A stretch of DNA of 63,986 nucleotides, counting the filler, from Dimargaris cristalligena (taxonomy: Eukaryota), in the NCBI GenBank assembly GCA_003614675.1. It is 9 parts of 9 records of this genome, joined end to end, with 100 filler letters (N's around TTAATTAATTAA, not from the genome) between each part and the next. Parts side by side here need not be neighbours in the genome. Positions count along the whole stretch, not along the records: positions 57,899 to 63,986 come from ML003555.1; 8 more parts are not named here. One strand, 5' to 3'. The translations under genes were made by a program, and so were the position numbers. The first letter of the stretch is position 1. Every line of letters starts with the position of its first letter. Shown one piece after another: positions 23,183 through 63,445 of the stretch. The notes beneath the pieces are model-generated. The model was given only the letters and a program-made list of their open reading frames with translations. It was not told the DNA's origin and did no database searches.

Positions 23183-23543
23183 AAACCTTTTCTTATTCTG
23201 ATGCTGAATTCACAATTTTACTAAACTTTATAAATGCGAAAGTCCAAAATAGTTTAATATTATTATATAAAACTCATTATTTATTTTATTTTATTATATT
23301 AAATCAAAAAGGGATTCAGATTCATACTGAATCTTAAGTTTCACACTAATTAGTGCTATTTATTACGCACATCACGTAAAAATAATTGAATATTGTACAT
23401 CTAAATATAATAAGAGAAACGTGTTCTACATATTTAACAATCCAGTTTCAGAATTACTGAGACATCAATAAAATAAATTAATGTAAAATATATAATAAAA
23501 GTTCATTAAATAAAAAATACTATACTAATAAAAAAAAGTATTA

Positions 23544-24460: not shown

Positions 24461-24732
24461 AGTTTAAAATGTAATGAACCAAAGATTAAAATTGAAAGTA
24501 AATAATGGTTTAGGAATTTAAAAAAAAGGAAAAGAATTTTTAATATAATTTATAGTAATCATAATTTAAATAAATAATCAGTAATACTAGCTCATTAATA
24601 TAAATACAAGGCCTATAAATAGATAATAATATTTTAAATGAAAACATTTTTTTTAATTCAAGCTCACTCTAAAAAAATATATAAAAAACTAATTAAAAAT
24701 AGAATTTAAAAAAGAGGGAGGGGGGGGAATTT

Positions 24733-28479: not shown

Positions 28480-28575
28480 ACGTCGTACTTAACCCAACTC
28501 ACGTACCTTTTTACTCGGCGAACAGCCGAACCCTTCGCACCTACTACAGCACGAGGATAAGATGAGTCGACATCG

Positions 28576-28884
28576 TTCTTATGTTAACCATACTTTTAGA
28601 GTATGGGACAGATCATATAATAGTCTTTATAAATAATTAGACTTAGACGTATGATCGTTGAGGTAACTTAATAAATAAGTTCCTGCTGATCAATATAAAA
28701 GAAATAGATTAATAACTTTCATAAAGATTTCAGCATAAAGTCTGTTGAAAAGATACTTTTCAATATCTTTACCCCGATTTGTAAATTAAATTTTATTACA
28801 ATTTAAAACCAATTTATTAAAATATAATATAGTTATGTTTGAAATTTTTTAATGATTTATCATAAAAATACGAAATATTTTCCC
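28576..28884 (-). mobile_element. 3' part of a group I (IA-like) intron in rnl near L2500; 5' end off contig
   Basis: P ATGCTGAAA, Q TCAGCAGGA, R CTCAACGATCATA, S TATATGATC, and P9 hairpin CCATACT...AGTATGG. Confidence 0.85.
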
Positions 28885-30814
28885 NNNNNNNNNNNNNNNN
28901 NNNNNNNNNNNNNNNNNNNNNNNNNNNNTTAATTAATTAANNNNNNNNNNNNNNNNNNNNNNNNNNNNNNNNNNNNNNNNNNNNCTTTGAACAGGGGTGC
29001 AGTCGGGCCAGGGGCAGTATGAATGCAGGGGTATCATCCGGTCAGGGGCAGGGGCTCATTTACTCATCAGGGGCATACTTCCAATAAGTGCGAAAAATGG
29101 ATTAAAAATAAAAGTAGGTAAAAAATGTGGTAGGTTCACCACACTCCCCATTCCCTTTCCAAAGTACCAGAGGCTTTAAACAGATAATGAGCTAGTACTC
29201 TGGGTAACATACTTCAATACTAATGTGATTCTGTGTTATTAATGAAATGTTCACTTAGTATCAATGGCTTAGTTTTCAGTTTTGTGAATGAGGCCCTTTA
29301 AGTCAGGTCAGTAAAGTTAGTGATTGAGCATTTAAACATTTAGTCCTAAACTAAGTTAATCATACAGATATTAGCCATACTTATTACAGACTTAAAAGTA
29401 AAAGTAGAAGTAGAAGTAAAAGCAATAGAAATAGAAATATAACCTAAGGATTAGACCAAGAGTGTCCTGCAGAGATATTTGAGTGCTTTACTAAAACAAT
29501 CACCTTAGTGCAATTCTTGGTTTATCTGTCCTTATAATTTACACAGTTGGCCAGCAGCCAACATTAGCATTGTATTTTACACTTTGTTCAGTTACTAATG
29601 TGAATATAAAAGCTCTTAGTACTTCCCCATTTATTTGTCACTTGGCAACCTATTCTGGATGGTCAGTTAATTTGGCCAGTAGCCCTGGTCTGCACCTGTA
29701 CACAAATCACTTACCCATAATATGGCAAGAAATAAGTGTATATATCTATTATAATAATAAACTATTAGCCTATGGGTGTTAACAGACACCAATTCATGAT
29801 GAGCTGGTTTATCAAACCATACAGTTAGAGGAATACATTTAACACAGCAAAGTCTGAGTCTATTGAGAGAAAACAAAAGATATGGAATGCTGGGTTGCCT
29901 TTCTGGCTCCAAAAGAATGTATATTTAACCAATGTACACAAGTCTATAATGTGCCCGAACCTCCTCCCAGTGGGAGTAGTCGGGCTTGGGCAGGTTGAAC
30001 AAGCCCCTGAACTTTCTCTTGGGCATTGTTCTTCGAGTTTCCATGTAGTCTGCCTGGCAATTCTTGCTTGTTCAGTAGGTGCTGGTAGGTTTCTCTTGTA
30101 AAACGGTACATTCGGCCAGCAGCAGGGCCGGTACGATGTACAGCAGGATGGAGGATGCCCCCCGTCATTGGCTATCAATTTGGCATTTTACGTTACAACA
30201 CACCATAATTACATCTCGGTCTCAACAACCACCCCGACTCTTTTTAAAGAACGTCCTCGGTGGACGCGGAATAATAACAATCATCATCACCCACAACAAC
30301 ACACACCATACTCACAATTCCTTTACTTGTTTACTTACTTTTATCTATCTTATTTACACACCTCGAATAAACCTTCGTCTTAACACCAACATTGCTGTTG
30401 AAGGAAGTAAGGTTTCCTCTTAACTCCTATATCGTTACAACCAAACTCAGTCGCCTTGCCCCCTCTTGCTCTAGGAGACTCTTTCCCACTCTTACGTCTT
30501 TTATAATCAACCATTCATATACTTATATATTTATATCCCCAATTCAATATAGCGATACGTAACACTCTCTTGGACGCATGCCTTCAGCCGGACCAACCAG
30601 ACCTCCTCTAGCCCACTACTCATCCGCCATTCCCTAGTCGGACCGAAAGTCCAGGAGGGGTGGGTAGTGAATCAGCCCAACAGCGAGATCAGCCGGGGCA
30701 GATGTTACCCAGTGTTAGAGTACTAACCAATAGAAATCCCACTATGGGAGATATATAGCGAATCAATAGCTAATCAATAAAGGTTGGTCTTTTTCTTCTC
30801 TCTTAATTGATTTA

Positions 30815-33265: not shown

Positions 33266-34650
33266 ATGTTTTACTTTCGAGTAATTTTTCTACTATGCAT
33301 AGTGGCTAATTTAGCCATTGCCCGTCCCACAGTCATTGAGCAGGAAAGCCCACTCCAACCATTTGCACAAGCTATGGAGATGACTTACCGAATGCTTGAG
33401 CAGTTCTTTAGCGTAAAGTTCTATAATAGTGCCGCCGAACCTAAGCCACTGACACTGGGTGACCTTGAAAAGCTTTGCTTGACTTCGGTAAGTGGTTAGT
33501 CAATTACAGATATCCGACATTCACTACCCCTAACTACCAGTATAGCGTATTATACGCGACGCCCTCTACAGCCGTCATCTATTTACAAACTGTATTATGT
33601 AACTTACACTTGCCTTTTATTGACTATTTACCGATATTTTAACCACCGAATTGGCATTTACAGAGCTCCCCGTCCCACGGTACACCGTCCGAGGGAAAAC
33701 AGCTAAACTGTGCCCTAGTGGAGATTTCGAAACGGGGGGGCACCTACCAGGTGGAGGACTATTTTCGCCGACACGTTCGCACCGCCAACATCGTGCAAAT
33801 GCGCCATTTCCTAAGTCCGTACTTTGAGTCCGCGTTTCGGCGGTACTACCAGGTAGTTCCCACTGTACCTAACCTCTTCGGGAACGACGACGGCTCATCG
33901 CTCGGCCTCGACTACGATTACGACGAGCGGGACCAATTTGATGCCCACCCGCTGCTCAGCGCACTGAAAAATGGGGGCCTCGTCCAGGTGCAAAACATCT
34001 GGCTGGCCCTGGACGATTTATTGAACCGCAAGTCCCGGTCCATTACGCCAGCTCAACTCCAATTACTCTACGAGCGCCCGTCCCTGTATTTCCGCCCCAC
34101 GGGCCAACAACAGTTAATTGCGGGAAACAACGCCCCGATGGTAGACGGACAGCCATCACCACCACCGCTGGCCGCAGGTAGGACGAACCAGGTCAACCTA
34201 GACTTTCTGCGGGCGGTCTGGCAACGCACCCAGAAACACATTATCCAATGCGCCCTCGAACTCGACCTGGCCGATGCCGTGGAGGAATTCGCGGATTTAC
34301 TGGAGGAGTCCTACGGCATTTTGGAACCCTTTCGGCTCCGCCTCATTGTGCGGGCCTTTGAACTCAACCGGACGCGCACCCAAGCACTCGCCCTACAATA
34401 CTGGCGGGACTTGAGCCCCGACCGACGGGCGTTATTGGAACTCTGCGCGGAGGTGAAAAACTACCGTACTACTTGGACCCGGCTGCGCAGCGAAGCCCAA
34501 ACCTGGGGGAGTAAACTGGCTTCCCGGGCAATGGGGCTGCTCTATACCACGCCTCCGGCGGTTCCGCGGTCGTTTGGGCAGGCTGAGCACCAGCGCTGTG
34601 ACGCACTCTTCAATCCTCCTAGCATCGCTAGTAGTGCTCAGCGTTCATAG
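33266..34650 (+). CDS. Secreted protein of unknown function with a possible degenerate F-box; exons 33266-33487 and 33664-34650
   Basis: Signal peptide MFYFRVIFLLCIVANLAIA; phase-0 intron GTAAGT...TACAG joins in frame to the 310-aa ORF. Confidence 0.75.
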
Positions 34651-36124: not shown

Positions 36125-36224
36125 NNNNNNNNNNNNNNNNNNNNNNNNNNNNNNNNNNNNNNNNNNNNTTAATTAATTAANNNNNNNNNNNNNNNNNNNN
36201 NNNNNNNNNNNNNNNNNNNNNNNN

Positions 36225-37451: not shown

Positions 37452-40397
37452 TTACTGGTGGTCATTGAGTTTCATGAATACTTCTTCCAAAGTGGTCATG
37501 GACAGGCCAACCGCCACAATACCCAATGTCCGCTGGGGAACGCTCGCTTCCAGCTGATTAAAAAGCGCTGGAAACGTGGAGGTATCCGTCTGCAGGGGCA
37601 ACAGGTACGTTAAGTCCTGCTCCGTTTCGGCGTACACTATAGATCCCGGGACGGCTGCGGTAACTAGGTTATGCAGACGCTCCAGGCGGTCCGAACTACG
37701 CCGCGACATGGGATCACGGGGGTCCGATCTGGGCATGGTCAAATCGACGGAGGAGACGGCCGGTTGGTCCGATTGAATGCTGGTGGTGGCCGAATACTGG
37801 CCGAGGAAGGAGCCGGCGGCCGGGCCTCGGTTGGTCCAGCTGTTCGCCTGGGACTGGAATTGGGACTGGTCCTTGGTTAGGTGAAGCTGGTAGCCGGAAC
37901 CAAACCGATTCTTCAAAAACAGTGAAGTACCATAGGCCTGGAGCTTACCCTTGGCCATAATGGCGATGCGGTCGCCCAGGACATCGGCTTCCTCCATACT
38001 GTGCGATGTCAAAATCATGGCTCGGTCGTGCTGCTTGGCGGCTTGGATAAACTCCCAGGTGTACTTGCGGGAATACACGTCCATGCCGGTCGTGGGTTCG
38101 TCCAATAGCACTAGTTTAGGATCGCCCATGAGGGCAAAGGCAACACTCAGGCGACGTTTCATACCACCCGAGTAAGTTGAAACAAGTCGATCGGCCTTTT
38201 CAAGCAATTTGACCTTGTCCAGCAGTCCGCGAAGGTAATCGCGGTGGCGGAGAACTTGCTCCTTAGAATCGGAGGAGGGGGACCCAATGATAATACCCCG
38301 TACCTCCATGAATAGTTCCAGGTGCTCGTACCCAGTCAGCCAATCGAGGAAAATGTTAAATTGCGGGCAAATGGAGGTTTCGGATTGAAGTTTCTTGAGC
38401 AAATGGTTGGTGTCGGTGGGGTCGGAGTCAGCGGTGGGTAAAGTGCGGTCAAAGATGGTCACTTCACCACCAGTTGGCAGCAGGGAAGTGGCCAGGATGC
38501 TCACAGTCGTTGTTTTTCCCGCACCATTGTGGCCCAATAGGGCCATAATCTGGTTACGGTGCAAGTTAAGGTTGAGGTCATCCACAGCCCGAAAGGGCTC
38601 TGCCGAGGTGTTGTTCAATCGCCGGCGGATCAGATGGATTAGTGCGGCGATGGGAGTGCGGGGTGACTTGGCGGAAGTAGCGTAGACTTTAGTTAGGTGA
38701 CGAATTTCTACCGCGTTGCGGGTGGCCTCCGGGATATCATTCACCTCGTCCTTTTCGATCATATCGGGGGTGAGCCCCGAGGCGGAGATAGCCGTCCCCA
38801 TGTGACGCATGGGTATCGAGGCTTCGTCCACTGACGCGGATGACCGCGGATACATGAGGCCCTGCACGCCCGCTTCTGATACGCTAAAATCGTGCTCTTC
38901 CCTGGATTGAACCAGGACCGGTGCACTTGATCTCCAGTAACTGCTCTTGAACAAAAAGTTCCAGCCGAGAGGTCGATTGGACGAAGTGGCCGAAATGGAA
39001 TGGGCATACCACGCAATGAACAGGTAGAGCACGATGTCGACGGCCAACATACCGAAGCAACGCGGGAGTGGATCCGAGTACTGTAGGGTACTATAATTGA
39101 TGGGCGTTTGGGTGCTCTCGGCCTTGAGCATGGTTTGGATGGCACTGGCGAAGGCGGTATGCGAGATGAGATATATCAACCATTCGCCGGCTTCACTGAT
39201 GCCCACGACGTAGATGTTAGCTACGATGGCCAAGAACATGCCGATAATGACCCCAATCTGGGTCACGTTGGAAGCCCGACTCCGTTCGCTGATGAAACAG
39301 CCAATAAATAACCCTAGGCCGATATTGGTCATTTGGAATAAGAAGATGGCCAGAAAGACCAGAAACCAGTGGGTCTGGGTGAAGAACTGTCCGGCACACG
39401 TGATGATCGTGGCGATGACTGAAGTCAAGAAGTACATACCGGTTTGAAAGACCGCAATCGAGCCCATATATGTGGCCTCGTTGAGTCCCATCATCAACAA
39501 GACCTGTTTAATCTGGGTTTCCTTCTCGTGAACGACCAGAACGACAATGTGGATGACGGACAGGCCGAGACCGAGGACCATGAGATATGGGCCTACCGCT
39601 ACGATGTAGGTGTTGCTATAATCGTCACCGGCGAATTTAGAGATACTTATGGCTGGGCTTTCGAGATCGACCGAGCGTCGCGCTAATCCGCTCTCGGAAG
39701 AGCGCGGATTGATGGCCGATAGCGGTGACGGCAATCGGGGCAGACTACGCCCGTCGCGGTAGACATTCTGAATGGCGCGTTCCACGTAGACCTGGGCAGT
39801 TAAGCACAGAGTGTCGATGAACCCGACGGTCCCGATGGCCGTGTGGTTACAGTGGAGCGAAAAGGAGGGGGAGTTTTCGAGCGAGCCCAGGTCGGCCCGG
39901 ACGGACCGGGAGTTGTTGGCCGTCGTGGACGAGGTCAGGTCGGGCAGAGTTACCCCCACCAGAGTTCCGGCGGGGTCGCGCTCATATTGGTCGAACAGGT
40001 CCTGGCGTGAAGCAAAATACTGGGTGCGAATGGGGTGGGGCTCGGACTGGTCGAATAGCTCCTGAAGGGCCGTCAACAAGGGCTCCTGACTCGTGGTGTT
40101 GGTGTAGGCAAAGTGAAGGCATGAGGTACAATTGGCGGACAGGGGCGGGAGAGCATCGACCTGGCTGGAGCCAATGGTTCGACGAGCGCTAAAATTGAGG
40201 GCGACCAGAAGGACTAGAAAGTAGATGCTCATGAGAAACTCAAAAGCCAAGATAGGACGGTTGCGAATGCGCGATACGAAGATCTTTTTGAGCAGAATGC
40301 GGAGGGAGCGGTGCCAGCTGGGCTGAAGGGTGACCGCGTGCGAGCCCGCATAGGAGGGGGCGGCTCCCTCTTTAACGGGGTCGGCAGAGAAGGACAT
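37452..40397 (-). CDS. Half-size ABCA-subfamily transporter (TMD then NBD), intronless, 981 aa
   Basis: VHEKETQIKQVLLMMGL, Walker A GHNGAGKTT, signature YSGGMKRRL, Walker B LLDEPTTG, LTSHSMEEAD, FLKNRFGSGY, TTLEEVF. Confidence 0.93.
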   Translation of the reverse strand: MSFSADPVKEGAAPSYAGSHAVTLQPSWHRSLRILLKKIFVSRIRNRPILAFEFLMSIYFLVLLVALNFSARRTIGSSQVDALPPLSANCTSCLHFAYTNTTSQEPLLTALQELFDQSEPHPIRTQYFASRQDLFDQYERDPAGTLVGVTLPDLTSSTTANNSRSVRADLGSLENSPSFSLHCNHTAIGTVGFIDTLCLTAQVYVERAIQNVYRDGRSLPRLPSPLSAINPRSSESGLARRSVDLESPAISISKFAGDDYSNTYIVAVGPYLMVLGLGLSVIHIVVLVVHEKETQIKQVLLMMGLNEATYMGSIAVFQTGMYFLTSVIATIITCAGQFFTQTHWFLVFLAIFLFQMTNIGLGLFIGCFISERSRASNVTQIGVIIGMFLAIVANIYVVGISEAGEWLIYLISHTAFASAIQTMLKAESTQTPINYSTLQYSDPLPRCFGMLAVDIVLYLFIAWYAHSISATSSNRPLGWNFLFKSSYWRSSAPVLVQSREEHDFSVSEAGVQGLMYPRSSASVDEASIPMRHMGTAISASGLTPDMIEKDEVNDIPEATRNAVEIRHLTKVYATSAKSPRTPIAALIHLIRRRLNNTSAEPFRAVDDLNLNLHRNQIMALLGHNGAGKTTTVSILATSLLPTGGEVTIFDRTLPTADSDPTDTNHLLKKLQSETSICPQFNIFLDWLTGYEHLELFMEVRGIIIGSPSSDSKEQVLRHRDYLRGLLDKVKLLEKADRLVSTYSGGMKRRLSVAFALMGDPKLVLLDEPTTGMDVYSRKYTWEFIQAAKQHDRAMILTSHSMEEADVLGDRIAIMAKGKLQAYGTSLFLKNRFGSGYQLHLTKDQSQFQSQANSWTNRGPAAGSFLGQYSATTSIQSDQPAVSSVDLTMPRSDPRDPMSRRSSDRLERLHNLVTAAVPGSIVYAETEQDLTYLLPLQTDTSTFPALFNQLEASVPQRTLGIVAVGLSMTTLEEVFMKLNDHQ

Positions 40398-41078
40398 GTT
40401 AAAAGTACACTCGTGCAGCAGGAGGTAGACAGAATATACGAATTCCTGAGCAATGAGACCCAATGGGCTAGTATTAAATAGTATAGGACCCGAGAAAGTG
40501 AAATGAGATATATGTTAAATAGGGGGACAAGTTGGATAAAGAGAAGCGGCAAGGCTTAACTATATATTCCCTGGACTTGAGGAATTATCGAAGTTCAGAG
40601 CAGAGGACATAGGGACGCTCGTCACAGGGACCGATAGGTGCGGGGTTCTATGCCCACCAGGTCCGTGTGCCAAGACCTGTTATTACACATCGTTTGTTCG
40701 TTGCTTCTCCCAAGAAACTCCAAAATCTTTTCACAGTTCAGCCTATTTATAGGGAAAAGTAATACTACTATCCTCTCAGGATCTTCCTTTTCCTCCGCCC
40801 TCTCCGTCCATTGGTGGAAAAAAAAGGACAAACAGTGCTGATCATTTCCTAACCCAAATGAAGGCATTTCGTTGTTAGTGGATCTCGGCGACCTAACGAA
40901 TACCATTTGGGCCTGGCGCACTTGGCGCCGACATGATTCGCCTTTAAAGATAGTTATTGTCGCCGACTATTCGCTACTGCGGGCCATGCGCACTATATAT
41001 AACGCAACAATTAAGCCCAGGTCATTTGACCTACTTCCCTGATAGAGTTCTAAAAAGGTTCATACAGCCTACTGTTCT

Positions 41079-43178: not shown

Positions 43179-43452
43179 GTAATAGTAATAATGAAATTGC
43201 TAAGGTTTAAACCTGGTTTAGGCCAGTGTGATATTTGTCATTGACTAGGCTGATTGTACTCTTAGCTTTATATCTTGAAATAGCTATAGGAAATTGGCAA
43301 TGTTCCATAAATCTACTGACTACCTATCGCACACAATGGCCTAGGGTGCCTTNNNNNNNNNNNNNNNNNNNNNNNNNNNNNNNNNNNNNNNNNNNNTTAA
43401 TTAATTAANNNNNNNNNNNNNNNNNNNNNNNNNNNNNNNNNNNNNNNNNNNN

Positions 43453-46094: not shown

Positions 46095-48674
46095 CTAACT
46101 AACCCAAAACAATATTTCTTTCCCTTTTACTAATAAAATTCCGTTTATTAAACCTATACTTCGATATTTATATCAACTGGATATCAAGCACACACCTAAT
46201 TTACTGGATATCAGTATATATTTTTGCACTTTTATTGTAGTTTTTTATTTTGAGATCAAATATGGCAACACGGAACAGAGCCTGTTGTATAGGGTTCTTA
46301 TCAGTTCGGTTGGGTAGGCCATGGAAAATATGGTGCTGCTATTGATATCTTCAGACAGGACACAAATGGTCCCAAAAACAAATTTATTACGTGTTCATAT
46401 GCACCAACGTCCCAGGATATTTGTTATACCAGCTATATCCATGATATGGCCATGGGGTTGGGTCGTGTTCATCTTAAGCCCATTGAATAGCTCTTCCCAG
46501 GAAGGAAACTGCCAACCCCTGGGGTCGTTTAGTATGACAAAGCCACCAGAATATAATCCAATATCAAGCAATCAATTATTTAGTCCAGTAGCATAGTACC
46601 CGAATTATTATTACTCTCGGCAATAACCCACTTGCTCCGATTGAATCAAAGCCCAAGTTTATTAGTAGGGCCCTGAGTCGTAATGGTCAGTTGTTAGTGA
46701 AAACTCCCAAGGCACTGCGCAGTTGGGAATAATGTAAGGGCCCTTACTTCCGGTTATCCCGTCGGATGTTCAATATCTCTGAGCAAATGCCTATCTTGGA
46801 CCACCCATGAGATAACCTGAAATAGAGATCGCTGCCCTGCCTGGACAGCCTTTCCGTTACCCGGGGTCACATACATATAGGTGAGATTCAGCCAGGCTGT
46901 ATAACGAAGAATCCATTGGATAAGGCACATGCTGCTGGTTGAAAATGAATCTCCCGCATGGTTTCCCATCCACATATCATTTGAAATATTATACGGCTGG
47001 GTCGCATTTAACCGATATTGTGGCTTTCGCCCATAGTGTAACACCTTTCAATTAGGAGTTTGTGTCTTCCTTCAGTCATTAAATCAAATTTCATAACTTA
47101 TTTCTGAAGAATTTAATGATTCACCGGTGGTCTGTAAACAGGGGGGTAGCTTAATGATTAACCCCTTTATTTACCATCATCAGGGAATGGTCCTTGGGCA
47201 TATGTCGTCGGTATATTAAGGGCCTAAAGTCGCATCATAGTCAATTCCTTGTGGGTGCCTTGGTCATACTTTTATGCAACTGCTGTCGTTATCCTTTTTA
47301 TTAATGCAGCCCTTCTAGGGCAATCCAAAACGTTGATAAGTGTTAATGTAATCAGTATCGTCTGAGTAACTGGTGCTTCAATTTCTCCCTCGCCCATAAT
47401 GTTTATCTAGGGCGGTACATGACACGAATAAGCCTGTCAAAGACCAGTCGATACTTATTTACTATCATAGATGATATTTAAAACCTCTCTCCCCCTATCT
47501 CTGACTACTTCCCACCCCTTCATTTATTTTTTATAAAAAAGTCTAGGTTACTGGCTCGGGTTGCTAATATGGGATGCCTCAACGAAAGGAATGAAAGGAT
47601 ATCCTCGATTAGGGAAACACAATGAGCCCAATTATAAAAACATTTCCATTCCAAGGGAAGAGCCATTAGTCGCCATGCATATGTATGCATATTTCTATAT
47701 ATAGAAGGGATGGAACGGAGAACCCCCCGGTGGGGTGATGAGGGCGGGCTAGAAATGACCAGGTGGGGGAGGATTATTTCGCCATACTGGTAAATTAAGT
47801 GCCAATCGGATATATTTTGATCTAATGAATGTAAAATTGGTCGGCCAGGCCATTGTAGTGACCATATGGGGCTGTATGGAGATACCAATAGGAAACCGTA
47901 TATTTAGAGCTTCCCCACCCAATTCTATTATCGCACAGTAGCTTAAGCATTCTGATCCTACCCATCAGTGTATATTAACCAATACTTCTAATTTTTAATA
48001 AAACACCATCGAGTATCATTCAGGCATTTTTGGATATGGGGATTAGTGAGTGATCTAATGATACCAGTGAATAATAGCAAAAGATAAGAAAAGGCAAGAA
48101 ATATCCCCCCAAACAGGGCTATTAAAAAGCAACTTCCACTTTGGGAAGACGCGCCGACGCGACGCGTACAATTGCCACAATGAGCCATATGAATTAGGGT
48201 AATATACGACTGAGGCAGTGCCATTCTGCCCAGAATTTCTCCTCCTGTAGAGGCCGAGGAGCGGACCTGATAGAGGAAGCCACCTGTATCATTGCTTCCC
48301 ATTAATCCCGTAGTACTCCCCTGCATAACTATCCCGGCGTATACAACTCTTTTCCTTCAGGGGGAAGCACCGTGCTCTCACAGCAACCAACAACTCGGTC
48401 GATATGGGTCCATTCCGCCTGGCTTTGTGGAGCAAAATCAAAACAACAAAAAAAGGATATATTTTACCAAACCCCAGCGACTCGGGCCACACTCCCCTAT
48501 ATGGGCCATTCTCCATATAAATACAGATACCGCCCAGCCCGTAGCACCCTATCCACTTCTCACCTCTTCACCGTTCCAGAAGCCATAACAGCTGGCACCT
48601 ACCACTTTCAATTACCTATCAACCGTCACCCTCCCTTTCTTATTATCTCCTCCTCTCAACCCAAACACACCATC

Positions 48675-49622
48675 ATGTTGTCCTCCAAGCGTTTCACGAA
48701 GTTCTTTACTAAGGCCAACCCCATTCATGCCCTGAAGAAACTCGGCAATAAGTTGCGTCCTTCGACCTCTCGCCAGCCCACCACCCCGCCCCCCAATCCC
48801 ACTCCCGTCGCTGCCGGCTTAGGCTCCAGTCAACCTATCGCCGCTATGTGCTGGGATGATATTACTCTGGATGCCATTTCTGTCACTGATGAATCATCGG
48901 ACATTGCCTCCGACAATAGTGCCACCACTAACACCAGCACCGCCGCTACTGACGCCACTACCGCCGCCGTCGTCGTTTGGTCCGACTCTTGCCCAGTCGC
49001 TCCTACCCTCACCACCCCGCTCTCCAATCCCACTTCCGCCGCTGCCGGTTTAGGCTCCACTCAACCTATCGCCGCTATGTCCTGGGAACATATTAATCTG
49101 GATGTCATTTCTGTCCCCGATGAATCATCGGACGCCGCCTCCGACACCACCGCCACTGCCGCCGTCGTTTGGTCCCGCTCTAGTCCAGTCGCTCCTACCC
49201 CCGACCCTCCGAAACGCTCCACGGGCTCGCAAGCCCCTTCAAATAGGTTCTCCGGGGCCTGGAACCAACTGGTAACTAAGGTTCGCTCAGCCGCCACCCA
49301 CGTTGTCGCTACCTACGATACCCCCGTCGAGACCGAACCACTCCCCCCGCTGTCCAGCTGGACCGGGAACCCGGCCCCACTCCCCGTACCCGCCGCCGAT
49401 GCCGAATTCCATGCCAAGCACTACTTGCTGACGGCCGCCGCCGAGGAACTGGGGACCTCCATCTTCGCCAACTATACCACCGGCAAACTGGACAAAGAGC
49501 AGTGTATCGAACTGCTCTACCACATGCGCGATATCGAAGACCAAAAGACCCTGTTGGAGGAATTTATCTCTCCGTCCCAGTATGGCAACGGAATGTATTC
49601 TACTTATGCCACCTACGCTTAG
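48675..49622 (+). CDS. Hypothetical Ser/Thr/Pro/Ala-rich protein with an internal duplication
   Basis: TATAAA at 48516, ATG in CATCATG context, GC-rich coding-like sequence, two copies of AAGLGSxQPIAAMxWxxIxLDxISVxDESSDxASD. Confidence 0.7.
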   Translation: MLSSKRFTKFFTKANPIHALKKLGNKLRPSTSRQPTTPPPNPTPVAAGLGSSQPIAAMCWDDITLDAISVTDESSDIASDNSATTNTSTAATDATTAAVVVWSDSCPVAPTLTTPLSNPTSAAAGLGSTQPIAAMSWEHINLDVISVPDESSDAASDTTATAAVVWSRSSPVAPTPDPPKRSTGSQAPSNRFSGAWNQLVTKVRSAATHVVATYDTPVETEPLPPLSSWTGNPAPLPVPAADAEFHAKHYLLTAAAEELGTSIFANYTTGKLDKEQCIELLYHMRDIEDQKTLLEEFISPSQYGNGMYSTYATYA

Positions 49623-52248
49623 TAACTTCTTAAGTTTCACCTTTGTATAGTCATTGTACTGGCTTTCACATTGTTTTTATTGCCCTTTATTTGTCTTGAT
49701 TATATTACATATTCCTTAATTGGTAACCAAAAAAACAAAAAACTCCCTGCATCATACTGTTTCAAAGCTGCATTACACTCTCCACTTTTAAAATCCAAAT
49801 CATCTTCTCTGTTCCTGGGCCACTATACCATATCCATACTCGCATTTTTATGACACTCATCATTAATAAATCCTCATCCTTTTCATTTTTTTAGCCACTC
49901 GAGATAGTATGTCTTTATTATATTCATTAATTCGGTTTACCTTATAGCTTCAGCCTAGTATCAGTATCAGGATATTTTTTACCCCATGCCTCCCAGAGTG
50001 TAACTTCCGCTATATTAGTATTCTGGGACGTCTGTTACACATACAAGGTTACGCAAATAGTAATGTTCTGTAGTAAAACGCCGTTACATTAAACACAATA
50101 CTAATTTGCTAATATTCCAAGTAACACGTGGTAGCAAAGAAAAAGTTTCTAGTCAAAAAAGGGATTAAATTCTTAATAAAACACACAAAGCTAGTTGGGG
50201 TGGGGAGTCGGGCCAGGTCGATTTCAAAGTGGGGGCACGGATGCTCCCAAGGTTTCTATTAATAAATACCGATTTATACTATGTCAGCCCTATTCCCGGT
50301 TGGCGGTAAGTTAACAACCATGTTTAGGTTGAATTGAGGACTCATCTAGGGGACAGCCTCGCTTTCCAGTAACCTTTAAGCAATGCAAAGATGTCAGCCG
50401 CCCCGACCTTATCCTTACATCTAACCTATCCCTGGTTAGTAAACAACAGCTGGACCAATTCTGCGACCCAGAGAGTGGGAGGTGTCCCTAGCGATAACAT
50501 ACAAGTATCCCTCCCCTTTCCAAGCACAAGGGCTACTATTTAGAGGTTACGTATATTATAATAGTAGCATGGCATTNNNNNNNNNNNNNNNNNNNNNNNN
50601 NNNNNNNNNNNNNNNNNNNNTTAATTAATTAANNNNNNNNNNNNNNNNNNNNNNNNNNNNNNNNNNNNNNNNNNNNAACCTACCGCGGGCATCTAGCCTT
50701 GCCCCTTGCGGTTCTTTCTCTCTTCTTTAAATTGTTTTAGTTGTATCTGAAGGCACTTGCGTTTACCATCAAACTTATATTTCCAACAGATTGCGATTAT
50801 CACTGGTTGTAGTATATACATACATGTAGGATGGCTACCTTGAAGCTGCCGTGACTAGGGCTATACAGGGGTGTCGGGTCAGGGTAATACAAAAAAACAC
50901 ACAGCCCCGTCCAAACAATTGGGATGGTTAAATTCCCATCCAACACATTATTTTAGTGATAGAGAGCGGAGGTGTTATTGCCAACTAAATAAAAGCAGAA
51001 TATGCACTGGTGAATATATCTAAGAATGTATTTGTAATATAGGGGTTATCCCATATATAAGCCTAGTGCTTTCGACAAGATGCAATGATTGAAACGAAAA
51101 ATATGAACACTGATGGAACATTTATATGTTGGTGGTGAAATGGACATTGAACAAGAATATAATGGAAGCATTGCCCATAACCCCATGAACACTGTCACTA
51201 GAAAAGTTTGAATCAAGAGGTCAGTCACGGTATCCAATTGCTCCAATACCATGCCAAAGCTCCGACAGGAGACATCCTAGTCAATACAGTACTGGGGGTT
51301 GTCTCTACTGATGCTTATCAAGGGGAAATGAGGAGGGGGGGCATTATCGCTGTTATGATTAAGCGAAGAGTTTTAGCCATACAATTAATTGTATCGTTTT
51401 ATTAGGACACGGAGAGCCCGAATTAGCGGATTATCCCCTGCCCTATACCCTGGATTTGCTGGTGGAGTTAGCTGGGTTTATAACTGGCTACTGCCTCTGC
51501 CCTGGTGGGCCATTATCGTTGAAGGAGGATCAGGTAACGGCCACCTAGTTTCAGGGAAATCGACCCCGCTCTGCGGGTTGCACCACAACCAGGTCTAAAA
51601 GTCCCCGTTAGCAACTCCATGATTAGCTTGATTAAGGATCTACCGTTAGGGCCAGATATTTACTCTGCCTTAATCGGCTGCCATCTCATACGCTGTAGCA
51701 CATGTAGTATGCTGTAGTCCATGGCACCCAACCGGCTCGCAGGATTAAAAACGTGGTAATCACTATCAAGGTATTATTAGGGTAGAGCAAGTCCGAAAGG
51801 AAATCATTAAAGCATATTCTTGGAAACCAGCTGCAGGGTGACCCGATAAACAAATTTAATTTACACGCCTACTTAGATAATACATATGGGTAACATGCCC
51901 CTAAATGCCCTAATTGATACAGTATGTTTAAAAATATTATTAAAAATAACGAGAACACAGACCAACTAAAATAATGGTAATGTTATCTATTGGACCATTA
52001 AAACAAAAATAAAATTTAACTAATAGGAGTCATTACTGGGCGGCTAACTATGCTTACTATTATATTTGAAATAGAACAGTGATAATGTAATACTAAATAG
52101 ATCATTAGGGGTGATGCGTCTGAGGAAATTGATTTAGTTAGGCGGGCATGCGATGGAATACAATGGTGGCTTTTCGTTTTAAACGGGGTATACTACAGAA
52201 GCTAGGCGTTCGCTCCCCGCCCTTAGAATTTGGCGGGGAATGTAGGTT

Positions 52249-54963
52249 TTAGGCGGGTTCGTTTCGCACCATGGTCCAGAGGTCCGTAAAATTAGTTGGG
52301 ATAATTCGGGTCGGTGCACCGGGTAAATAGTCCCTCTGCAGGATACTACCCGAGCGGGCCCGCCGGTCCGGTAGCCAATAAGTCAGCATATGCTGGTGGG
52401 CCAGTTCGGTCTGTTGGAATTGGCGCAGTTGATCGGGGTGAAGGACAAACTCAGAGGGTACGCTAGGGCCTGGGTTTACCGTTGGGTTAGTGGTATGAGG
52501 GTCCGACGTATAGAGTGATCCCGTTGGTTGGCGCGGATTCGCGGAGGGCCCCCGAAGCGGATGTGGCGAAGGCAGCGGAGTAGTGATTTGATTGGGCTCG
52601 GCTTTACCCTTCGGACCAGATAAGGTTTCGACGCCGTGACTTGCCACTCCCTTGCGGAATTGAATACGGTTTTTAATGTTGGGGGACGACTTGTGGGTGC
52701 GCAGAAAATTGGAAAACCGATCGGTGATTCTGGCCAGAGAAGAGATGGGCTTGGGTGTGGCGGAGGAAGGGGAGTCCGAAGCAGATTCTTGATCAGTGCT
52801 TTGTAGAGAGTGATAAGGACTGGTCTCGCTAAACTGAGGAAACGGTACAGTGGCCGGAGAGCGACCCAGGGAGGCGGATCGCCGCTGGGTAGCAGCAGTC
52901 GCCGGGTTACTGCTGGGGTTACTGCGGATAGTACCTAGGTCAAAACCGTCGGCGACCTCCAAGTCGTTGATGCCGGCGAATACGTCCTCCTCCTCTTCCC
53001 CGTGGGGATTCGTACTGATCCAGCGCATATGAATAGGGTCGAAAACCATGCCTTCGGGGGTTGGCTGGTCGGATAGGTGGGGGGAGAAGCTTCGGTCGTA
53101 ACTAACAATGCGCTGCATACGACGGTGCTGGGGATCCCGATCATCTGGCTCTTTAATACCTAATCCGGGAAACCGCTCACTTAACGTTTGGCTAAGGCTC
53201 AAGCGACTCAAGGCACGGGAGCGGGACAGAGGCGGATTATTCCGGCTTTGGGTAGACGAAGCGTACGAATGGGATGAGCGAGTGGACGAGAAGGAAGTGC
53301 GGGCCGGGGGTTCTTTAGCAAGGGGGGCGTCCGGTCGGAAAATATGAAGAGCGTTCTCGTTCCCCACCCAGACCTGGTGCTCGGGATGGTAGACCATGTT
53401 ACCAATTGTTTTGGCTATTTTGTGGGAGTTTAGATTTCGGATGAGGAGGGGCCGCCGTTTCCCAGTGACCGTCGGGCTACAGTGTTTAGTCGAAGATGGG
53501 TTAGTCAGATGATTTGAAGGGGTAGGTTTGCGGGCCATCGGTTGGTCAAGAAAAAGACCCCGACGGGATGGTAAACGCAGGTTTGGGGGTTTGGGTGGAG
53601 ATGTTGGAGAGGGATTGGTAGATGATGATGTCAACTGAGGGAACGCGGAAGGTTTGGCCAACGGAGCTGGGGTCGCAGTATTTAGGTTTGAGATATTAGC
53701 CAGTGGGGCGGGTTCCACCGTTTGGCGTTTCGCTTGGGCCAGGGGTTTAATGTTTGAACTGGTGGAAGTCTGACCGGCCATCCCAGCAGGCTTCTGATAC
53801 AGGTCGGGAAATTGGAATTCGAGTCGCTGTTTAAGAGGCGTCCCGAGCCCTAACAACTGAAAAGCTGGATCGTGCCGTGGCGATGGAGTAAGTGGGGTCT
53901 CCCGGGTCGTATCATGGGCATCTCCCCACACCAGAAACTGGTGGCCGCGCTGCTGTTTATGGCGAGGGGTGGCTTCAAAGTCGGACCAGTCGAGTTCACT
54001 TTCGATGCCTTCGGGAGTGGCCGAGGGGTCGGATACCGATGGTGGCAGCGGGGACGCGAGTGGAGAGGATTCGGGTGACGGCGGGCGGTGTAGCCGACTA
54101 TAGTCCGTCTGCTTGAGTTTCAATTGGGTAGGCGAGGAGGGGAAATCCACTCCCGCCCAGTCATCATCATTGTCATCATCGTCATCATCATTATCGTTGA
54201 GGCCTTTGATGGCTGCTAGTTGCTTTAAATTAGCATTACCGCTGGTTGACATCCGGAAGCGCTCTAGGGTGGACTGTGCGGGAGTTTTGATGTCGGAAGA
54301 GGAGCCATCGGAGGCCGTGTGGCCCGACGCACCTACACCAGCTGGTACGTGATCCGGCTTGATCAGCCCGAGTCCTTTGGATACACCAAGTCGTCGAGAA
54401 GCTATATCGGTTTAAGAGTTAAATTCGGGTATAACAATATGGAACAGATAGATAGATAGCTTACTTAAGTTAGATATCAGCAAGTGATTTCGGAGAAGCG
54501 ATCAATTACATTTCGGCTAAGTAGCCGTGAAGGGGATTGGCTTAAGGGGGATGTATGTATCAATCCAGGGTGATAAACCTATAGACTACTGAAACAATGA
54601 CTGACCAACTAGGGTATCCGGGGTAAACAGCGTCATACGCTGCGGTGGGGTGGAATGGGCTCCGGTACCCACAATCGAAGGCCGAATAGGCTGGGGTTTG
54701 GTTACGGTCCGGGTATTGGGCGACCACGAATTCTCCGTGTCAGTATCGTCCACCTCAAAATCGCTCAGGCCGCTTAAGTCGTCGACATAGTTTATGTTCG
54801 AGCGAAGGCCAGGAAACGCCTTGGTATCGAAGGCGTCGGGAGTTAAGGTGGGGGGAGGTGGGGCCCGAACGACTTGGTCGCAGTCGTTGTCCAAGTCAAA
54901 GTCGGAGTCTTCCCACTTTTCCAGAGTGGGCTGTGGCGTGATGAATTGGCCGGTATGGAACAT
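52249..54963 (-). CDS. BFA1: Byr4/Bfa1-family mitotic exit / septation GAP scaffold; exons 54963-54606 and 54401-52249
   Basis: RPLLIRNLN, GNMVYHPEHQVWVGNE, GMVFDPIHMRWI...EEEEDVFAGINDL, EFVL...FQQTELAH...W; GTCAGT...ATAG intron restores the frame. Confidence 0.85.
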
Positions 54964-56899: not shown

Positions 56900-58272
56900 T
56901 TGATGTGTACCCCGTCCAAAACCCCGGTATTGTTTTTTTTGTGTTAGCTAGATCACTCTTACCTGCTATCCCCGGTGCTTGTATTATTATTAAACTATTT
57001 GTGAGGCGTGTGGTCCATGATAACTAGGCTAGTGGTAAAATAATGCCGTGAATATTATATTTATAATGCTGAAAATATTAAAGAAGTGTCAATAAAAATT
57101 TGGGTGAAAGGGAAGGGAGCAACTAGAGGACGCTAGGTGCCTCTAGGTGGTTAGATTTACTGAATAATGTAGTCGGCAGGGGGCATTTCAGGTGGGTGAA
57201 ATGATAGGACATCGAAAAGCTAAATAAACTAACATATTTGGTCAGAAACAGGAGATGATAATAGATACTTCAGGACATATGTTTCAACAGTGTTTGTATC
57301 CTGTAGTATTATTCGCACCACCGTAGCCACTATAAGTCCCCAGAATAATCCTATCGGTTTTGGTTCACAGATAAACATGCGTGGGTTGCTGTTGTTGGAC
57401 AAGTGCCCCCACCCCTTTGGTGTGGCCTAGCATTGCCCTCTTCCTAGGCAATGTGGTGTATAGCAATAAAAATACTAACATCATAGAATAATTGTTTGTA
57501 AATTTTCCCGGATAGCCCAGTTAACGTCCATCTAGAAGTGCACCATTACAGGCTGCTTAATATGCAATTTTTTTATTGCCATTATTATACAGTTGAAACT
57601 AAGCCCAATGTCATATAGTGATAAAGGATATGTGGATGGTTAATTGGGGGGCATATGTCTTTTACAATTAATGACGCCTGCTGTACTGCCATAGGCTCAG
57701 ACAAATTTCCCTTCCCATGAGACAACCTAGGTGTATTCCCTCGCCACATAATGACTGCACATTCAATATCCACAGTTACACTCTTTGAGCAAACACTTNN
57801 NNNNNNNNNNNNNNNNNNNNNNNNNNNNNNNNNNNNNNNNNNTTAATTAATTAANNNNNNNNNNNNNNNNNNNNNNNNNNNNNNNNNNNNNNNNNNNNGA
57901 AAGTAGGATGAGTTAGGAATGGACCATCGCATTAGTAGGTAATGAACAAAGCTGTCCCTTCTGGAGCTGCGCAACAACCAAGACACATGGGCTGACCAAA
58001 CTTTTGAGGGATTGGTTTTCTTAGGATGAGCCTCTCCCTCCACCCTGACTTTACTGGGTAGTGTATAATAATGGGGTTTTCATTTGCCAATACTTAATAT
58101 GTTAGCCCCCTAGATATAGGGAATGCCTAATGTATACACCCGAGATGGTGGCGGTATATTGGTCTCAGTGTCCGTTGAAATCGCTTGGGTGGTATACAAT
58201 TCCGCCCTGGGTAAATAGTACTCGCTTTATTTCATTAACATTCGTACTTGAGGTGTTCAGCTGCCATTGCAC

Positions 58273-59947
58273 CTATAAATTCAACCACCACGCTGTCAAC
58301 CACCCCGCAAGCCCCATCGATGCAGGCTCAGCGCGGTCCCTGGCCAGGTCTTGCCGGTCGCGCGCCAGTTGTTCGGAATCATATGGGGGCAAAGCCGCTG
58401 AGGGCACTGTCATAAAGGCATATCCCTGATGTTCGGTATCCCAGAGTCGGGTGCGTGGTACGTATTGGCCTAAATCGGCCGAGCCTTCGCGTAGGTACAG
58501 CACCGAATAATTGTAGAGATATTTGGTACACTGACCGCCCAGGGGCTGTTTATCCGCTGTACTTTCCGCATTCTCTTCGGACAGGCTCCAGTGGGCGGAC
58601 AAATATTTGGCGGTCTTTTGATACTCCAATTGGGCTAAACATTGCACCATCCATGTCCGCAGTTGGAGGTGGCTGGGACCTTTCCAAACAAATTCCCTCC
58701 ACTCCAAATGGGAATCGAACACGGATATTAAGTCGGGGTTGCCGGTTATAGCACCCAGCATAATTCCGAATCGGGCCCACTCCATAGCCAACTCGTGAGT
58801 CTTGAATTGCTCTGGCATCAGTGTATTTAACCCTTTACGCATGTAGTGGTAGAAGACTCGGAGGTCCTCCCAACGGTTGGTCCGGAATAGTCGCCACATA
58901 ATGGTGAGAATAAGGCGTTGTACAACGGCGTAATGGACCTCGACCTGCTGGGTGGGGCGAGGGTCACCCAGGCCGGGAAATATTGCATCGAAGCGACGTG
59001 GATTTAAGAGACGTAAACCTTCTCGCATTCCCTTATGGCAATTATAGTCGAACAGTTGCACTAGGAGGGACCCTAGTTTATCCATTGGCCAGGTATCGGC
59101 GAGAGATACAAAGGGGAAATTGCGCGCGAACTGTTCTTGGGTGAGCTGGCTCATATCGACCAGGACCCGGTTTTTAACATTAAACAGAAGGGGTTCCTCG
59201 AGGTTCTTTTTGAGGTATTTTCGATAAGCTAGACGAATCGCCTCCCTTTCCTGGTTTGTGATCTTGTCCACCATAACCTCAGTAGTACCGTCGTCCGCGG
59301 AATACATTAGTGGGGGAGATGGCTGAGGATTGAGCTCCTGCAGGATCTCTGACCAACGGGAAGAGACTGAGTTATCGATTTGGTCGGAGGTTTCCAGATT
59401 GGCCAATCGATACCAGCTCTGCACAAGTTGCTTCAATTCGATATCGGATAGACTTGTAGGACTATATAGCAGACTGCTTAGTTTTTGGACGCATTCCTGG
59501 ATCTAGGATTGGATGGACATGTATGGAAGGGTATATAGGTCAAGGTGGGGAAGGAGATGAGCGCTGATGGTTGGAGGAACCGCGGAGGAAAGACTTAGGT
59601 CTAATCAGACCTCTAAAATAGGCCAACCTACTCGGTGGCCGCCGCGCGTTTGGTTAACTGCCACCCGTTTTAGCTGGAATAAAGTCTACAGAATAACCGC
59701 AAAATCTACCCGCGACAGCACCTACCGCAGGTAAATGGAGCAGTTTGAATCGGTGGCGCAGTCCCCCAGTAAGGTTTTCAACGTTCGCAAAGTCTTCGAA
59801 GCCCAAATGACTGTGAATAACGCCTAGCAACTCATTGGGTAGACGCTCAAATAGGGAGGGTCCCCCAAGTTGACCATACGTCGCAGGACTGGAACTGCCA
59901 CCTGTCAGCTGAGCGGTAATTAAAAACGGAACAATCCAAATACGCAT
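58273..59947 (-). CDS. Secreted protein with N-terminal F-box-like motif; exons 59947-59726 and 59502-58273
   Basis: Signal-like MRIWIVPFLITAQLTGGSSS, then LFERLPNELLGVIHSHLGFEDFANV; phase-0 intron GTAGGT...CTAG joins in frame to the 387-aa ORF. Confidence 0.78.
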
Positions 59948-60784
59948 AATGGATAAAGGGAACGATTCTAAATATTATGAACAACGTGCAAAGGTCAGAT
60001 GTGTGGCGGAAATTAGAGAATATATGTCGTTAACGAACTACAAATTAATCCGCGAACTAGGACCACCGTAGTAGTGATTTAAATATGGAGTACTGGTCTG
60101 ATCAACCTTGTTTTGAAATCGCCTTTATCCGCCTGCGATCACTCGTCAGGTCGTTTGGAGATAGTGGTGGGGTTGGAGGTGATTTTGGGCCAGTTGATAC
60201 AAGCTAGCTTCTAACCCATGTACCACCACTGCGCCACCAGGGCAATTAACCTGTCCCCCCTCTTTGTAAAGGGGATATCGATGTCCTGTGCACCTCGGCA
60301 CACAGCCACAAGCCAACAAGCCAATAGCCCAAAACACCTTCAGGACTGTTCATCGTATATCCGAGTCGGGCGAACCACACGAACCGCATGCCTGGGGAGG
60401 ATATATAGGCAGAATCGGTCATTGCCCATGCCTAAACGGCTCAGAGGCCATCTGGACAGCGGGTCTGCTGCGCCTAGTAGGAGGCCTGGGCAATTTGCAG
60501 CTGCGGCACTTGCATGCATGGCAAAAAGGGCCGACCACCCCCCCCTCCTTCTACATCAACAGGCCAAAGATGAAACTACATGTTGTGACGTAGCTCCTTC
60601 ACCCTTCAGCCAAGTCTGGAAGTGCCCCCCCCGCTCTATTTAAATGCTACATTGGCCTTCACAGCCTCCCCCATCTCGGCATATATATAACCTTTTAGAG
60701 TCAATTGTCCTCCCAGCTACTAAACTAAACCCTGATATAGATTCCATTTACCAGCCGTGTAACCCTTCAATCTATTTACCTTCC

Positions 60785-63445
60785 ATGAGTTCCCCGCTAG
60801 CCCCAGCCCCGGCCACCAAGCGTCCCCACGTATGCCGTTTTTTCATCCGAGGATTCTGCCGAGCCGGCGAGGAATGCCGTTTTCGACATGACCCAACTGT
60901 CACCGAAAACCCAGCCCCATTAGAGCCCATCCTCCCAGAGGAGGAGGCCGCTGCGACGTCCAAACCTAAAGCAAAGCGCCGTCCCCGCACTAGGCCAGTG
61001 CATATGCGCTGGCCCCCGGCCTACCGCGCCTGCTTCAGTGAGTTGACCCAACACCCCGTTTGGCGAACCGACATTCAGGTCCAACCCGACGATCGAACCT
61101 GTCTGGTCTCGGTTGCCTTCCCCCCCGCCGACCCTGAATTGCCCTATGAGCTTCCCTACTTGCATTTGGACATTCTACTACCCCCCACCTCCAGCCAACG
61201 GCAGCGCCAGCAACGGCGACCCCCAACCCGACCGGGAGACGAACCCCCACCCGATGTACCGCCTACCTTTACTATTCGTAATGATGATATTCCCCTGGGA
61301 ATCCGGACGAACCTCGAAAAGGCCGCCCTGAAATTCTACCAACACCCATCGCCCACGCCTGGGTCATTGGTCAATGTAATTAATTATTTGAGTCTTAATT
61401 TGGAATCGTTATTGAAGGCCCCACCGGCTACTACGGTGCGATTTGTTAGCCACCAACAAATCGATCCCCGGCCACCTTTAGTTCGGCCGGGCCTAACGAA
61501 TGATCCAGCCACTGGTCCAGCTAACCCCACGGTATCCCGCCGGGAATTAGAATTAGGCCAGCTTCAGCGACGGTTCCGCTCTAGCTTCCAGTCTTTTGAC
61601 GCAGAGCCCAATGACCCAGCGGAGCTAATGACTATGCAATTGACCGCCACGGACCCGGATTTCCCCGAACCCCACCGGGATTTTTACCTGACGCTCTGCT
61701 TACCACGCAAATATCCGGCTGCCAGAGCCCAATGGACTTTGGAACCTGTCCACCCTGACCTCCACCTCACCGCGGCCAATCGGCGCACAATCGAAGTGGA
61801 ATTGGCCCGGCATGTCCGAGAATACCCTGGCAAGCCATTGCTTCAATTTGTCAACTGGATTGATCGGCAACTTATCAACTGGGTAAAGGAAACCTCCCCA
61901 CCCGAACCCTCTGATCTAGTCACCCAAGCGATGGAAAACTTGACCATCGAGCCATCCAGTGTGACCGCAGATGAAAGCTCCGCTATCGAGGAGGAGGTTA
62001 CTTCGGAGGAAATCACTGACACTAATCCAGCCTCCGAATCGGATGCGGTGTCGGACGAGGAGGCCGTGGCCACTCCGGACTCTACTGTGGCGTTATTCCC
62101 GGCCCCCACTTCTCGGGGCTTTGCCATCCAGGCCAGTAAAATCGATATGCAGGGGGTGGACCTATTTTTCGCCATCCAAATCGAACTGTCTGTGGTTTGC
62201 CGTCGCTGTCAAAACACCATTACCGTCAGCAATCTCAATGGTTCATACGAAATGCCCAACCTCAGCCGGCACTTTTCTGGCGGTGGCGGTGGCGGTGGCG
62301 GTGGCGGTGGCGGTGGCGGTGGCGGTGGCGATGGCGATGGCGATGGCGGTGATGCTGGGTCCAATATCGACCCAACCCGACTACCTTTGGCCAGTCTGTT
62401 CCGCGTAAATCAACCCCAGTGGCAGACCTGTGAAAGCTGTAAATTCGGTATAGGCGTGCGTTTCCGCCCTGGCTACCTTCATGCGGCTTCCCGTGTATTA
62501 GGCTACCTCGATTGCCACGGTTGCCAGCCTTTGGATTTGCTCCCCGGTACGTTCAACCTGCTGTGCGAAACCTGTCACATCTCCAGCCCTGAAACAACCG
62601 ATAGTCCCCTTCCCTCCCCCCCCGATACCCTTACCACCCCGCCTGAACAACTGCGTACTAAGATCAAGGATCCCAATTATATTATTGTCGAGAAGGCTCC
62701 CTATGATACGATAAATTCAACCCGGTGTAAACGTTGCCACCAGAAAATTACGTTCAACATTCAGGGAGTCCGGTTTCAGCACAATCTTCCGGGATGGCCC
62801 CTCTCCGTTCCTGCCAAATACCAGGGGGCTCCCCTAAAACCTACGCGGAAAGTGACGGATAAACAGCTGGGAATCGTGCCTGGCCAGGTAAGTTGATTTT
62901 CCTTTTGTTATCGATTTCATTGGTATCCCCATATGTACTGGTTATTTGAGTTTTATGTATTTGCTGGTCAGAGGAGTTCGTGGATATATTGCAGAACTGG
63001 TTCAAATTCCGTCTAAAATACTCCAAACTAACTTATATAATCTGTTACATTCTAAATCCAACGTGCAATCCTACTCGGGAATGGCAATTGAAATATCTAG
63101 CCACTCCCCAAGAAAGGTACATGTAAACATTATGGCAAGTCCTACCGGTGGTTCCGCTTCCCGTGCTGTGGCAAATTGTACCCCTGCGACACGTGTCATG
63201 ACGCACAAGAGACTGGCCATCCCGCCCAAATGGCCCGTCGGGTGATGTGCGGTTTGTGTTCTGAGGAACAGCCCTATCGCGGTGATGTGGAGATTTGCCG
63301 GTCCTGCGGGGGCACCTTTGCCAAGGGGTCAGACGGTCGGCCGTATTGGGAGGGCGGTAAAGGAATGCGTGATAAATCCAAGATGAGCCGAAAAGATGCC
63401 CACAAGTACCGGGGTCTTAACAAAACCGTGGCCAAGAAAGGCTAA
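60785..63445 (+). CDS. CCCH plus CHY zinc-finger protein (similar to S. pombe SPBC18H10.09 family); exons 60785-62887 and 63101-63445
   Basis: CRFFIRGFCRAGEECRFRH; C-terminal GTCKHYGKSYRWFRFPCCGKLYPCDTCHD...CGLC...CRSC...WEGGKGMRDKSKMSRKDAHKY. Confidence 0.88.
62279..62352 (+). repeat. (GGCGGT)n(GGCGAT)n coding microsatellite giving poly-Gly and Gly-Asp
   Basis: Hexamer repeat seen directly in frame. Confidence 0.95.

Follow-up and report, generated by a model that had tools for sequence, protein, structure and literature searches.

A candidate SCF-adaptor mimic with a signal-like start and an F-box-like stretch in the mycoparasite Dimargaris cristalligena

A two-exon gene on the minus strand, at positions 58273-59947 of the DNA analysed here, raises the question of where its product acts. 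The first exon carries both a signal-like peptide and a stretch that resembles the F-box. An F-box normally does its work in the cytosol or the nucleus, and we know of no job for an F-box in the ER lumen or outside a cell. Could the protein be exported and its F-box-like stretch work inside a host? The preliminary description of the locus had proposed just this, for a parasitic fungus that delivers F-box adaptors into host cells. The parasitic habit agrees with the database name, Dimargaris cristalligena, since the Dimargaritales are described in the available part of PMC9866270 as haustorial mycoparasites, which form an appressorium and a haustorium on fungal hosts.

Structure and surroundings of the gene

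The window, which here means the whole analysed stretch of 63,986 nucleotides (filler included), contains 16 runs of N. These make up eight spacers, each of the form N44-TTAATTAATTAA-N44, at 7149-7248, 14397-14496, 21643-21742, 28885-28984, 36125-36224, 43353-43452, 50577-50676 and 57799-57898. The window is thus made of nine separate contigs, from 7,148 down to 6,088 bases long, laid end to end, so that features on different pieces are not genomic neighbours. The gene under study (gene A) lies on the last piece, the 6,088-base contig at 57899-63986. Its sole large neighbour on this contig is an open reading frame (ORF) of 750 codons at 60644-62893 on the plus strand. This ORF runs divergently from gene A; close to its beginning lies a CCCH zinc finger (zf_CCCH_4, with an E value of 2.5e-05, below the cut-off). 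Rfam and tRNA scans of the contig gave 0 matches each.

Several features of the other pieces were recorded. The piece at 21743-28884 has a G+C content of 27%, against 40.5% for the preceding piece (14497-21642). On the minus strand it carries an ORF at 22212-23084 that matches the C-terminus of NADH dehydrogenase subunit 5 (E 1.5e-19), and another at 27357-28412 that matches a GIY-YIG endonuclease (E 2.9e-05). This piece looks like mitochondrial DNA with an ORF of the homing-endonuclease type. An ORF of 1,020 codons at 37455-40514 on the minus strand matches an ABC transporter ATPase (E 1.5e-25) and an ABC-2 membrane domain (E 8.9e-22). No Pfam family was found at E<=0.001 for the ORFs at 7249-10625 (minus strand, 1,125 codons), 52252-54411 (minus strand, 720 codons) and 48306-49619 (plus strand, 438 codons). 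The first of these begins directly at a spacer and is thus cut by the end of its contig.

Gene A was confirmed as a real gene of two exons on the minus strand. The start codon (ATG) is at 59947-59945. Exon 1 (59947-59726) has 74 codons, ends in phase 0 and encodes the signal-like peptide and the F-box-like stretch. The intron (59725-59503, 223 nt, GTAGGT...CTAG) is of the GT-AG class and also in phase 0. Exon 2 (59502-58276) runs for 409 uninterrupted codons, which encode a predicted all-helical body, up to the stop codon (TAG) at 58275-58273. Splicing is needed because the exons lie in different frames and reading through the intron meets a stop; the alignment with the paralogs described below, collinear across the exon junction, supports the same splice.

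The spliced product of 483 amino acids is letter for letter identical to P0003, the hypothetical protein BJ085DRAFT_29471 of D. cristalligena (NCBI), with exon 1 supplying residues 1-74. Coordinates, a 74-codon first exon and a phase-0 intron had been given correctly in the preliminary description. The name of the product in UniRef is "F-box domain-containing protein". A second deposited annotation of the same protein, P0007, is also 483 residues long, has the same start and is identical at 481 of the 483 positions. The initiator methionine (M1) is encoded by the first ATG past an in-frame stop and is the sole methionine of exon 1.

The signal-like start and the F-box-like stretch

The signal peptides of gene A and of its paralogs were scored by a heuristic of our own, based on Kyte-Doolittle hydropathy and on small residues at -3 and -1. 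By this heuristic, residues 1-19 (59891..59947, minus strand) are signal-like, as had been proposed. A single positive charge (M-R) precedes the hydrophobic core at residues 3-14, the best hydrophobic window is IWIVPFLI (mean 2.7), and small residues compatible with cleavage follow after positions 16-19. Hydropathy revealed no other membrane-like window in the 483 residues of gene A, nor in either paralog. The same kind of start is found in all three members of the family (gene A, P0004 and P0005): by the same heuristic the core spans 8-12 residues in the best window with a mean hydropathy of 2.7-3.0, a net charge of +1 lies ahead of it, and small -3/-1 sites lie after it. Windows of 19 residues above 1.6 occur in P0005 alone, at positions 1-3.

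The core of a signal peptide is some 7-15 residues long and a membrane span some 19 or longer; with its short core, the N-terminus of gene A fits a cleavable signal better than an anchor. In gene A the sole charge ahead of the first F-box residue is N-terminal to the core and the region past the core is neutral, while this region holds one arginine in P0004 and a strongly acidic run in P0005. By the positive-inside rule, translocation of the C-terminal part is thus favoured, at least for gene A and P0005. Since a signal-like start has been kept by three divergent paralogs, entry into the secretory pathway is likely, and judged from sequence features the members of the family are likely to be cleaved and secreted.

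The core motif of F-box helix 1 is LPxE(L/I)(L/I)xxI. The string LPNELLGVI, at residues 36-44 of gene A, has this form. When the fragment that follows the signal was compared with Pfam, it matched two models and no others, both below threshold. PF12937 (F-box-like) scored 12.8 bits where 24.3 are required (E 0.1) and was matched at profile positions 1-24 of 47; PF00646 (F-box) scored 12.4 bits where 20.5 are required (E 0.16) and was matched at positions 1-23 of 43. The matches cover residues 33-56 (59780..59851, minus strand) and no more than the first half of each profile. With exon 1 alone the E value was 0.2, and no F-box was listed when the whole protein was scanned with Pfam. By Pfam's own criterion the protein falls outside the F-box families, as the matches lie below both cut-offs and are of half length. 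The match is real, but it is a sub-threshold half match.

In the ESM Atlas, residues 22-95 gave an F-box cluster as the best feature match (0.93, with a low count of 131 of 256 features shared). All seven listed feature sets were named F-box or carried an F-box Pfam family. The ten structure rows were likewise all F-box-bearing clusters, with TM scores by query of 0.49-0.64, in a range where, by the Atlas's own caution, values >0.5 mean little for short stretches; the mean pLDDT of the Atlas model was 0.41. AlphaFold2, run on gene A with only 2-3 sequences as input, gave a pLDDT of about 30 for residues 1-76 of the full-length protein and modelled the isolated F-box fragment as a single long helix (H17-49, mean pLDDT 63.7), not as a three-helix bundle. 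A sequence search of the PDB with exon 1 and with a two-sequence N-terminal profile returned only dihydroorotate dehydrogenase chains, none of them significant (E 0.26-0.82). This likeness was rejected, as it comes from a chance FERL..ELLGV string.

The exon had been called clearly F-box-like. The LPNELLGVI motif and the Atlas agree with that description, but the Pfam matches stay below threshold and AlphaFold2 gave no F-box fold. We lean, with some reserve, towards these residues folding as a true F-box.

A small family with a conserved helical body

The full protein was searched with phmmer against 1,835,955,588 representatives. Three proteins were found at E<=0.001, all from D. cristalligena: the gene A product itself, P0004 (BJ085DRAFT_28507, 456 aa, E 4.7e-07, aligned to gene A residues 169-385) and P0005 (BJ085DRAFT_41432, also P0006; 484 aa, E 5.6e-06, aligned to residues 163-459). 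Identity between gene A and these paralogs is about 25%. The alignment of the three proteins is collinear, with 35 invariant columns, which include the block ...LLPIMWRL..T.RWEDL..F.... On their shared architecture and significant sequence similarity, the three proteins, of 456-484 residues, are classed as one family. Its core corresponds to residues 163-459 of gene A, a part of exon 2 (58348..59238, minus strand).

Other searches added no member. A word-indexed protein search returned only the query itself for exon 2 (1 of 2,376 candidates) and for residues 1-80 (1 of 38 candidates). When the family profile was used in the same kind of search, 8,000 candidates were scored and P0003 and P0005 alone came back, without P0004. 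A metagenome scan with this profile gave 279 pattern matches, 0 of which were confirmed.

The F-box-like element is distributed unevenly in the family. P0004 has LPLELRNIV at residues 37-45, where the motif of gene A starts at residue 36. Because no more than 0.089% of 100,000 shuffled versions of P0004 residues 23-90 contained LP.EL..[ILV], the motif appears to have been kept and not to be accidental; that two paralogs with just 25% identity carry it at matching positions suggests that it is under selection. P0005 has no LP.EL motif. Neither P0004 nor P0005 gave any Pfam F-box match, whether the whole protein or the N-terminal fragment was scanned. An F-box match in Pfam, even below threshold, is thus found in one member of the three, and LPxEL in two. 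The element is clear in gene A, reduced in P0004 and absent from P0005, and the trait that marks the family is therefore the signal-like start together with the conserved helical body.

It had been supposed that a fixed first exon is joined to variable second exons. The reverse was seen: the phmmer alignments fall at residues 163-459, and the N-terminal region is the least conserved part of the family while the C-terminal helical body is the conserved one. The idea of a wider family sharing the architecture held to the extent that two paralogs with signal-like starts exist, but not for the F-box-like element, which two of the three lack as a Pfam match and one lacks as a motif.

A second gene of the window, at 33266-34650 on the plus strand, had been placed in the same family. 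It lies on another contig (28985-36124) than gene A. Its first exon (33266-33487, GTAAGT donor) does have 74 codons and a phase-0 end, its second exon starts at 33664, and its start is strongly signal-like by our heuristic, so that the likeness in layout stands up to this point; but an F-box motif is missing. A six-frame scan of the window for the motif gave three matches, of which only that of gene A lies within an open frame; none belongs to the second gene, which has no Pfam F-box match either. BLASTP of the two first exons gave no alignment at E<=100, the best value for the second exons was E 0.82, and hhalign of the gene against the family alignment returned a probability of 0.25%. On these grounds it was rejected as a family member. 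The 74-codon exon is best read as a coincidence between unrelated genes on different contigs. The gene itself is a two-exon orphan, with a second exon of 328 codons without a Pfam family, and its product is a predicted secreted protein.

What is the helical body? With the three-sequence alignment, AlphaFold2 gave a mean pLDDT of 48.1 for full-length gene A, and only residues ~257-380 reached 60-80, as stacked helical hairpins. Comparison by VIA-align with 48,161 chains brought up eIF3/PCI-type, TPR-like and designed helical repeats, with a best Z of 8.6, which is rated unspecific for helical models. A PDB search with the family profile gave RPN5 as its best match, which was not significant (E 0.16). 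In the ESM Atlas the features of the whole protein tended weakly to ankyrin clusters (best match 0.92, with 148 features shared; structure TM <=0.33), and no LRR, ankyrin or other family was found when the whole protein was compared with Pfam. These models suggest that the body is probably an alpha-helical repeat or solenoid of no assignable family. The product has 4 cysteines in 483 residues, and it resembles an intracellular-type protein and not a small, cysteine-rich extracellular one.

Proposed function and comparison with known F-box mimics

A mechanism can be outlined from these features. A cleavable N-terminal signal peptide would bring the product of gene A into the secretory pathway. 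What remains after cleavage would begin with a short lead rich in Gly and Ser, followed by an F-box-like helical module (LPNELLGVIHSHL...) and then by an alpha-helical repeat of about 400 residues. D. cristalligena would release it at the haustorial interface, from where it would reach the cytosol of the host hypha. There the helical body may bind a host protein, while the F-box-like module may dock on Skp1 of the host, a highly conserved protein, and the host SCF ligase would then ubiquitinate the target. This reading is drawn from the likely entry into the secretory pathway, the lack of any job known to us for an F-box outside cells, the haustorial habit of the parasite and the precedents for binding of host Skp1. 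It makes the product of gene A a plausible, though unproven, candidate for delivery into the host fungus. For the whole chain, that is, gene A as a host-delivered mimic of an SCF adaptor, we estimate a probability of about 0.35-0.4. One point stands against it: a family built around docking on Skp1 should have kept its F-box best, but the N-terminal region is the least conserved. The wider statement, that D. cristalligena exports through its haustoria a small, fast-evolving family of SCF-adaptor mimics whose helical body selects host targets for destruction, must be considered rather unlikely at present.

Nearly as likely as the SCF-mimic reading is that the family is secreted, or resides in the secretory pathway, and that its F-box-like stretch does not bind Skp1. 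The stretch would then be left over from an F-box ancestor that worked in the cytosol, or be a short helical motif that serves some other purpose, and the proteins would act through the helical body outside the host cytosol, for example at the cell wall, in the haustorial matrix or within the endomembranes of the parasite itself. The pattern of conservation speaks for this: the signal-like start is kept in three of three members and the F-box likeness in one of three, with the motif absent in P0005, and the helical body is what the family conserves. The sub-threshold, half-length Pfam match and the absence of an F-box fold from the AlphaFold2 models point the same way. Yet LP.EL at matching positions in paralogs this divergent suggests selection, and the F-box is the one assignment that Pfam, the Atlas and the UniRef name suggest for this stretch. 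A large, cysteine-poor helical repeat would also be an unusual extracellular protein.

The product may instead stay in the cell as an ordinary F-box adaptor of the parasite's own SCF ligase, its hydrophobic start being a weak signal, a cytosol-facing tether or a start that depends on the annotation. This would suit the normal place of F-boxes in the cytosol or nucleus. Lineage-specific proteins that join an N-terminal F-box to a C-terminal domain of no known kind are also numerous in fungi, and ascomycete families of this sort are among the nearest Atlas clusters. Such a role is nevertheless improbable, as the recurrence of the signal-like start in three divergent paralogs argues against a one-off accident, the clearly hydrophobic cores of 8-12 residues are below the ~19 usually needed to span a membrane, and the charges are placed in a way that favours export of the C-terminal part. 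The position of M1, the first ATG past an in-frame stop and the only methionine of exon 1, and the agreement of two deposited annotations on the start argue against a misplaced start. An orphan family confined to one species, with low confidence in structure prediction, could finally reflect an artefact of the gene model or a non-functional young gene without a selected function. This is very improbable in view of the 409 uninterrupted codons of exon 2 and its clean GT-AG splice, the collinear conserved blocks in two paralogs at 25% identity, which indicate that the frame has been maintained for a long time, and the same 483-residue model in both annotations.

By sequence, gene A can be placed in no described family. 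It is like ordinary fungal F-box proteins (PF00646/PF12937, Dia2-like and ascomycete clusters) in having an N-terminal LPxELLxxI helix and a large, variable C-terminal domain, and it is to their clusters that residues 22-95 come closest in the Atlas. It differs from them in falling below both Pfam cut-offs and in a C-terminal domain shared only with its two D. cristalligena paralogs. To our knowledge, ordinary cytosolic F-box proteins of fungi have no signal peptide.

If the SCF-mimic reading is correct, the closest functional analogue of gene A is, by analogy, the SSGP-71 family of the Hessian fly (Mayetiola destructor). SSGP-71 proteins are said to have secretion signals, and the family is reportedly very large. 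According to the available part of PMC4617103, they have an N-terminal F-box followed by a repeat domain and bind host Skp proteins, and some members are without the F-box. In both cases, as far as that source goes, a family of a eukaryotic parasite has an N-terminal F-box or F-box-like element, then a body that is a repeat domain in SSGP-71 and probably of repeat type here, and the F-box is missing in some members. SSGP-71, however, has LRRs and a recognisable cyclin-like F-box, whereas gene A has an unclassified helical body and a sub-threshold F-box. The host is a plant for SSGP-71 and a fungus for the gene A family, which has three known members here; the two are likened in layout and proposed function.

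Bacterial F-box mimics are comparable in function. VirF of Agrobacterium is reportedly an F-box mimic that recruits the host SCF. RipG7, of the RipG/GALA group of Ralstonia solanacearum, is described in the available text of PMC4617103 as a type III F-box effector that recruits host Skp1/SCF, and AnkB and LegU1 of Legionella appear in the accessible literature as mimics of the same kind, which direct host Skp1/SCF to new targets. What RipG/GALA, AnkB, LegU1 and VirF would share with gene A is a parasite-encoded F-box mimic that recruits host Skp1/SCF, as is proposed here. They differ from it in being bacterial, in their delivery by type III or IV secretion and in their LRR or ankyrin substrate parts, whereas gene A has a eukaryotic signal-like peptide; the likeness is by function alone.

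Within the portions of the literature available, the F-box mimics found came from bacteria (Ralstonia, Legionella, Orientia, Agrobacterium) or from an insect, the Hessian fly. Judged by title, papers on secreted F-box proteins and F-box effectors dealt with bacteria or were general in subject, with the exception of PMC8146833, whose available part calls the role of F-box domains in eukaryotic pathogenicity unclear. In the literature search no paper was found that joins Dimargaris cristalligena with the F-box, and none that names the three proteins or their accessions. The terms for Dimargaris and the F-box had 0 occurrences in the main text of PMC13188720 and PMC9391592.

Effectors of biotrophic mycoparasites are almost unknown. 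If the proteins do not bind Skp1, the family would be a set of helical proteins, predicted to be secreted and specific to this species, in a parasite that forms haustoria, and so a modest entry among candidate effectors. If they do bind host Skp1, fungi would also use F-box mimicry, and would use it against other fungi, in a three-gene family that is easily tested. This would be the first described case of F-box mimicry by a fungus, and the first in parasitism of fungus on fungus, and the helical body would be a new substrate-recognition domain.
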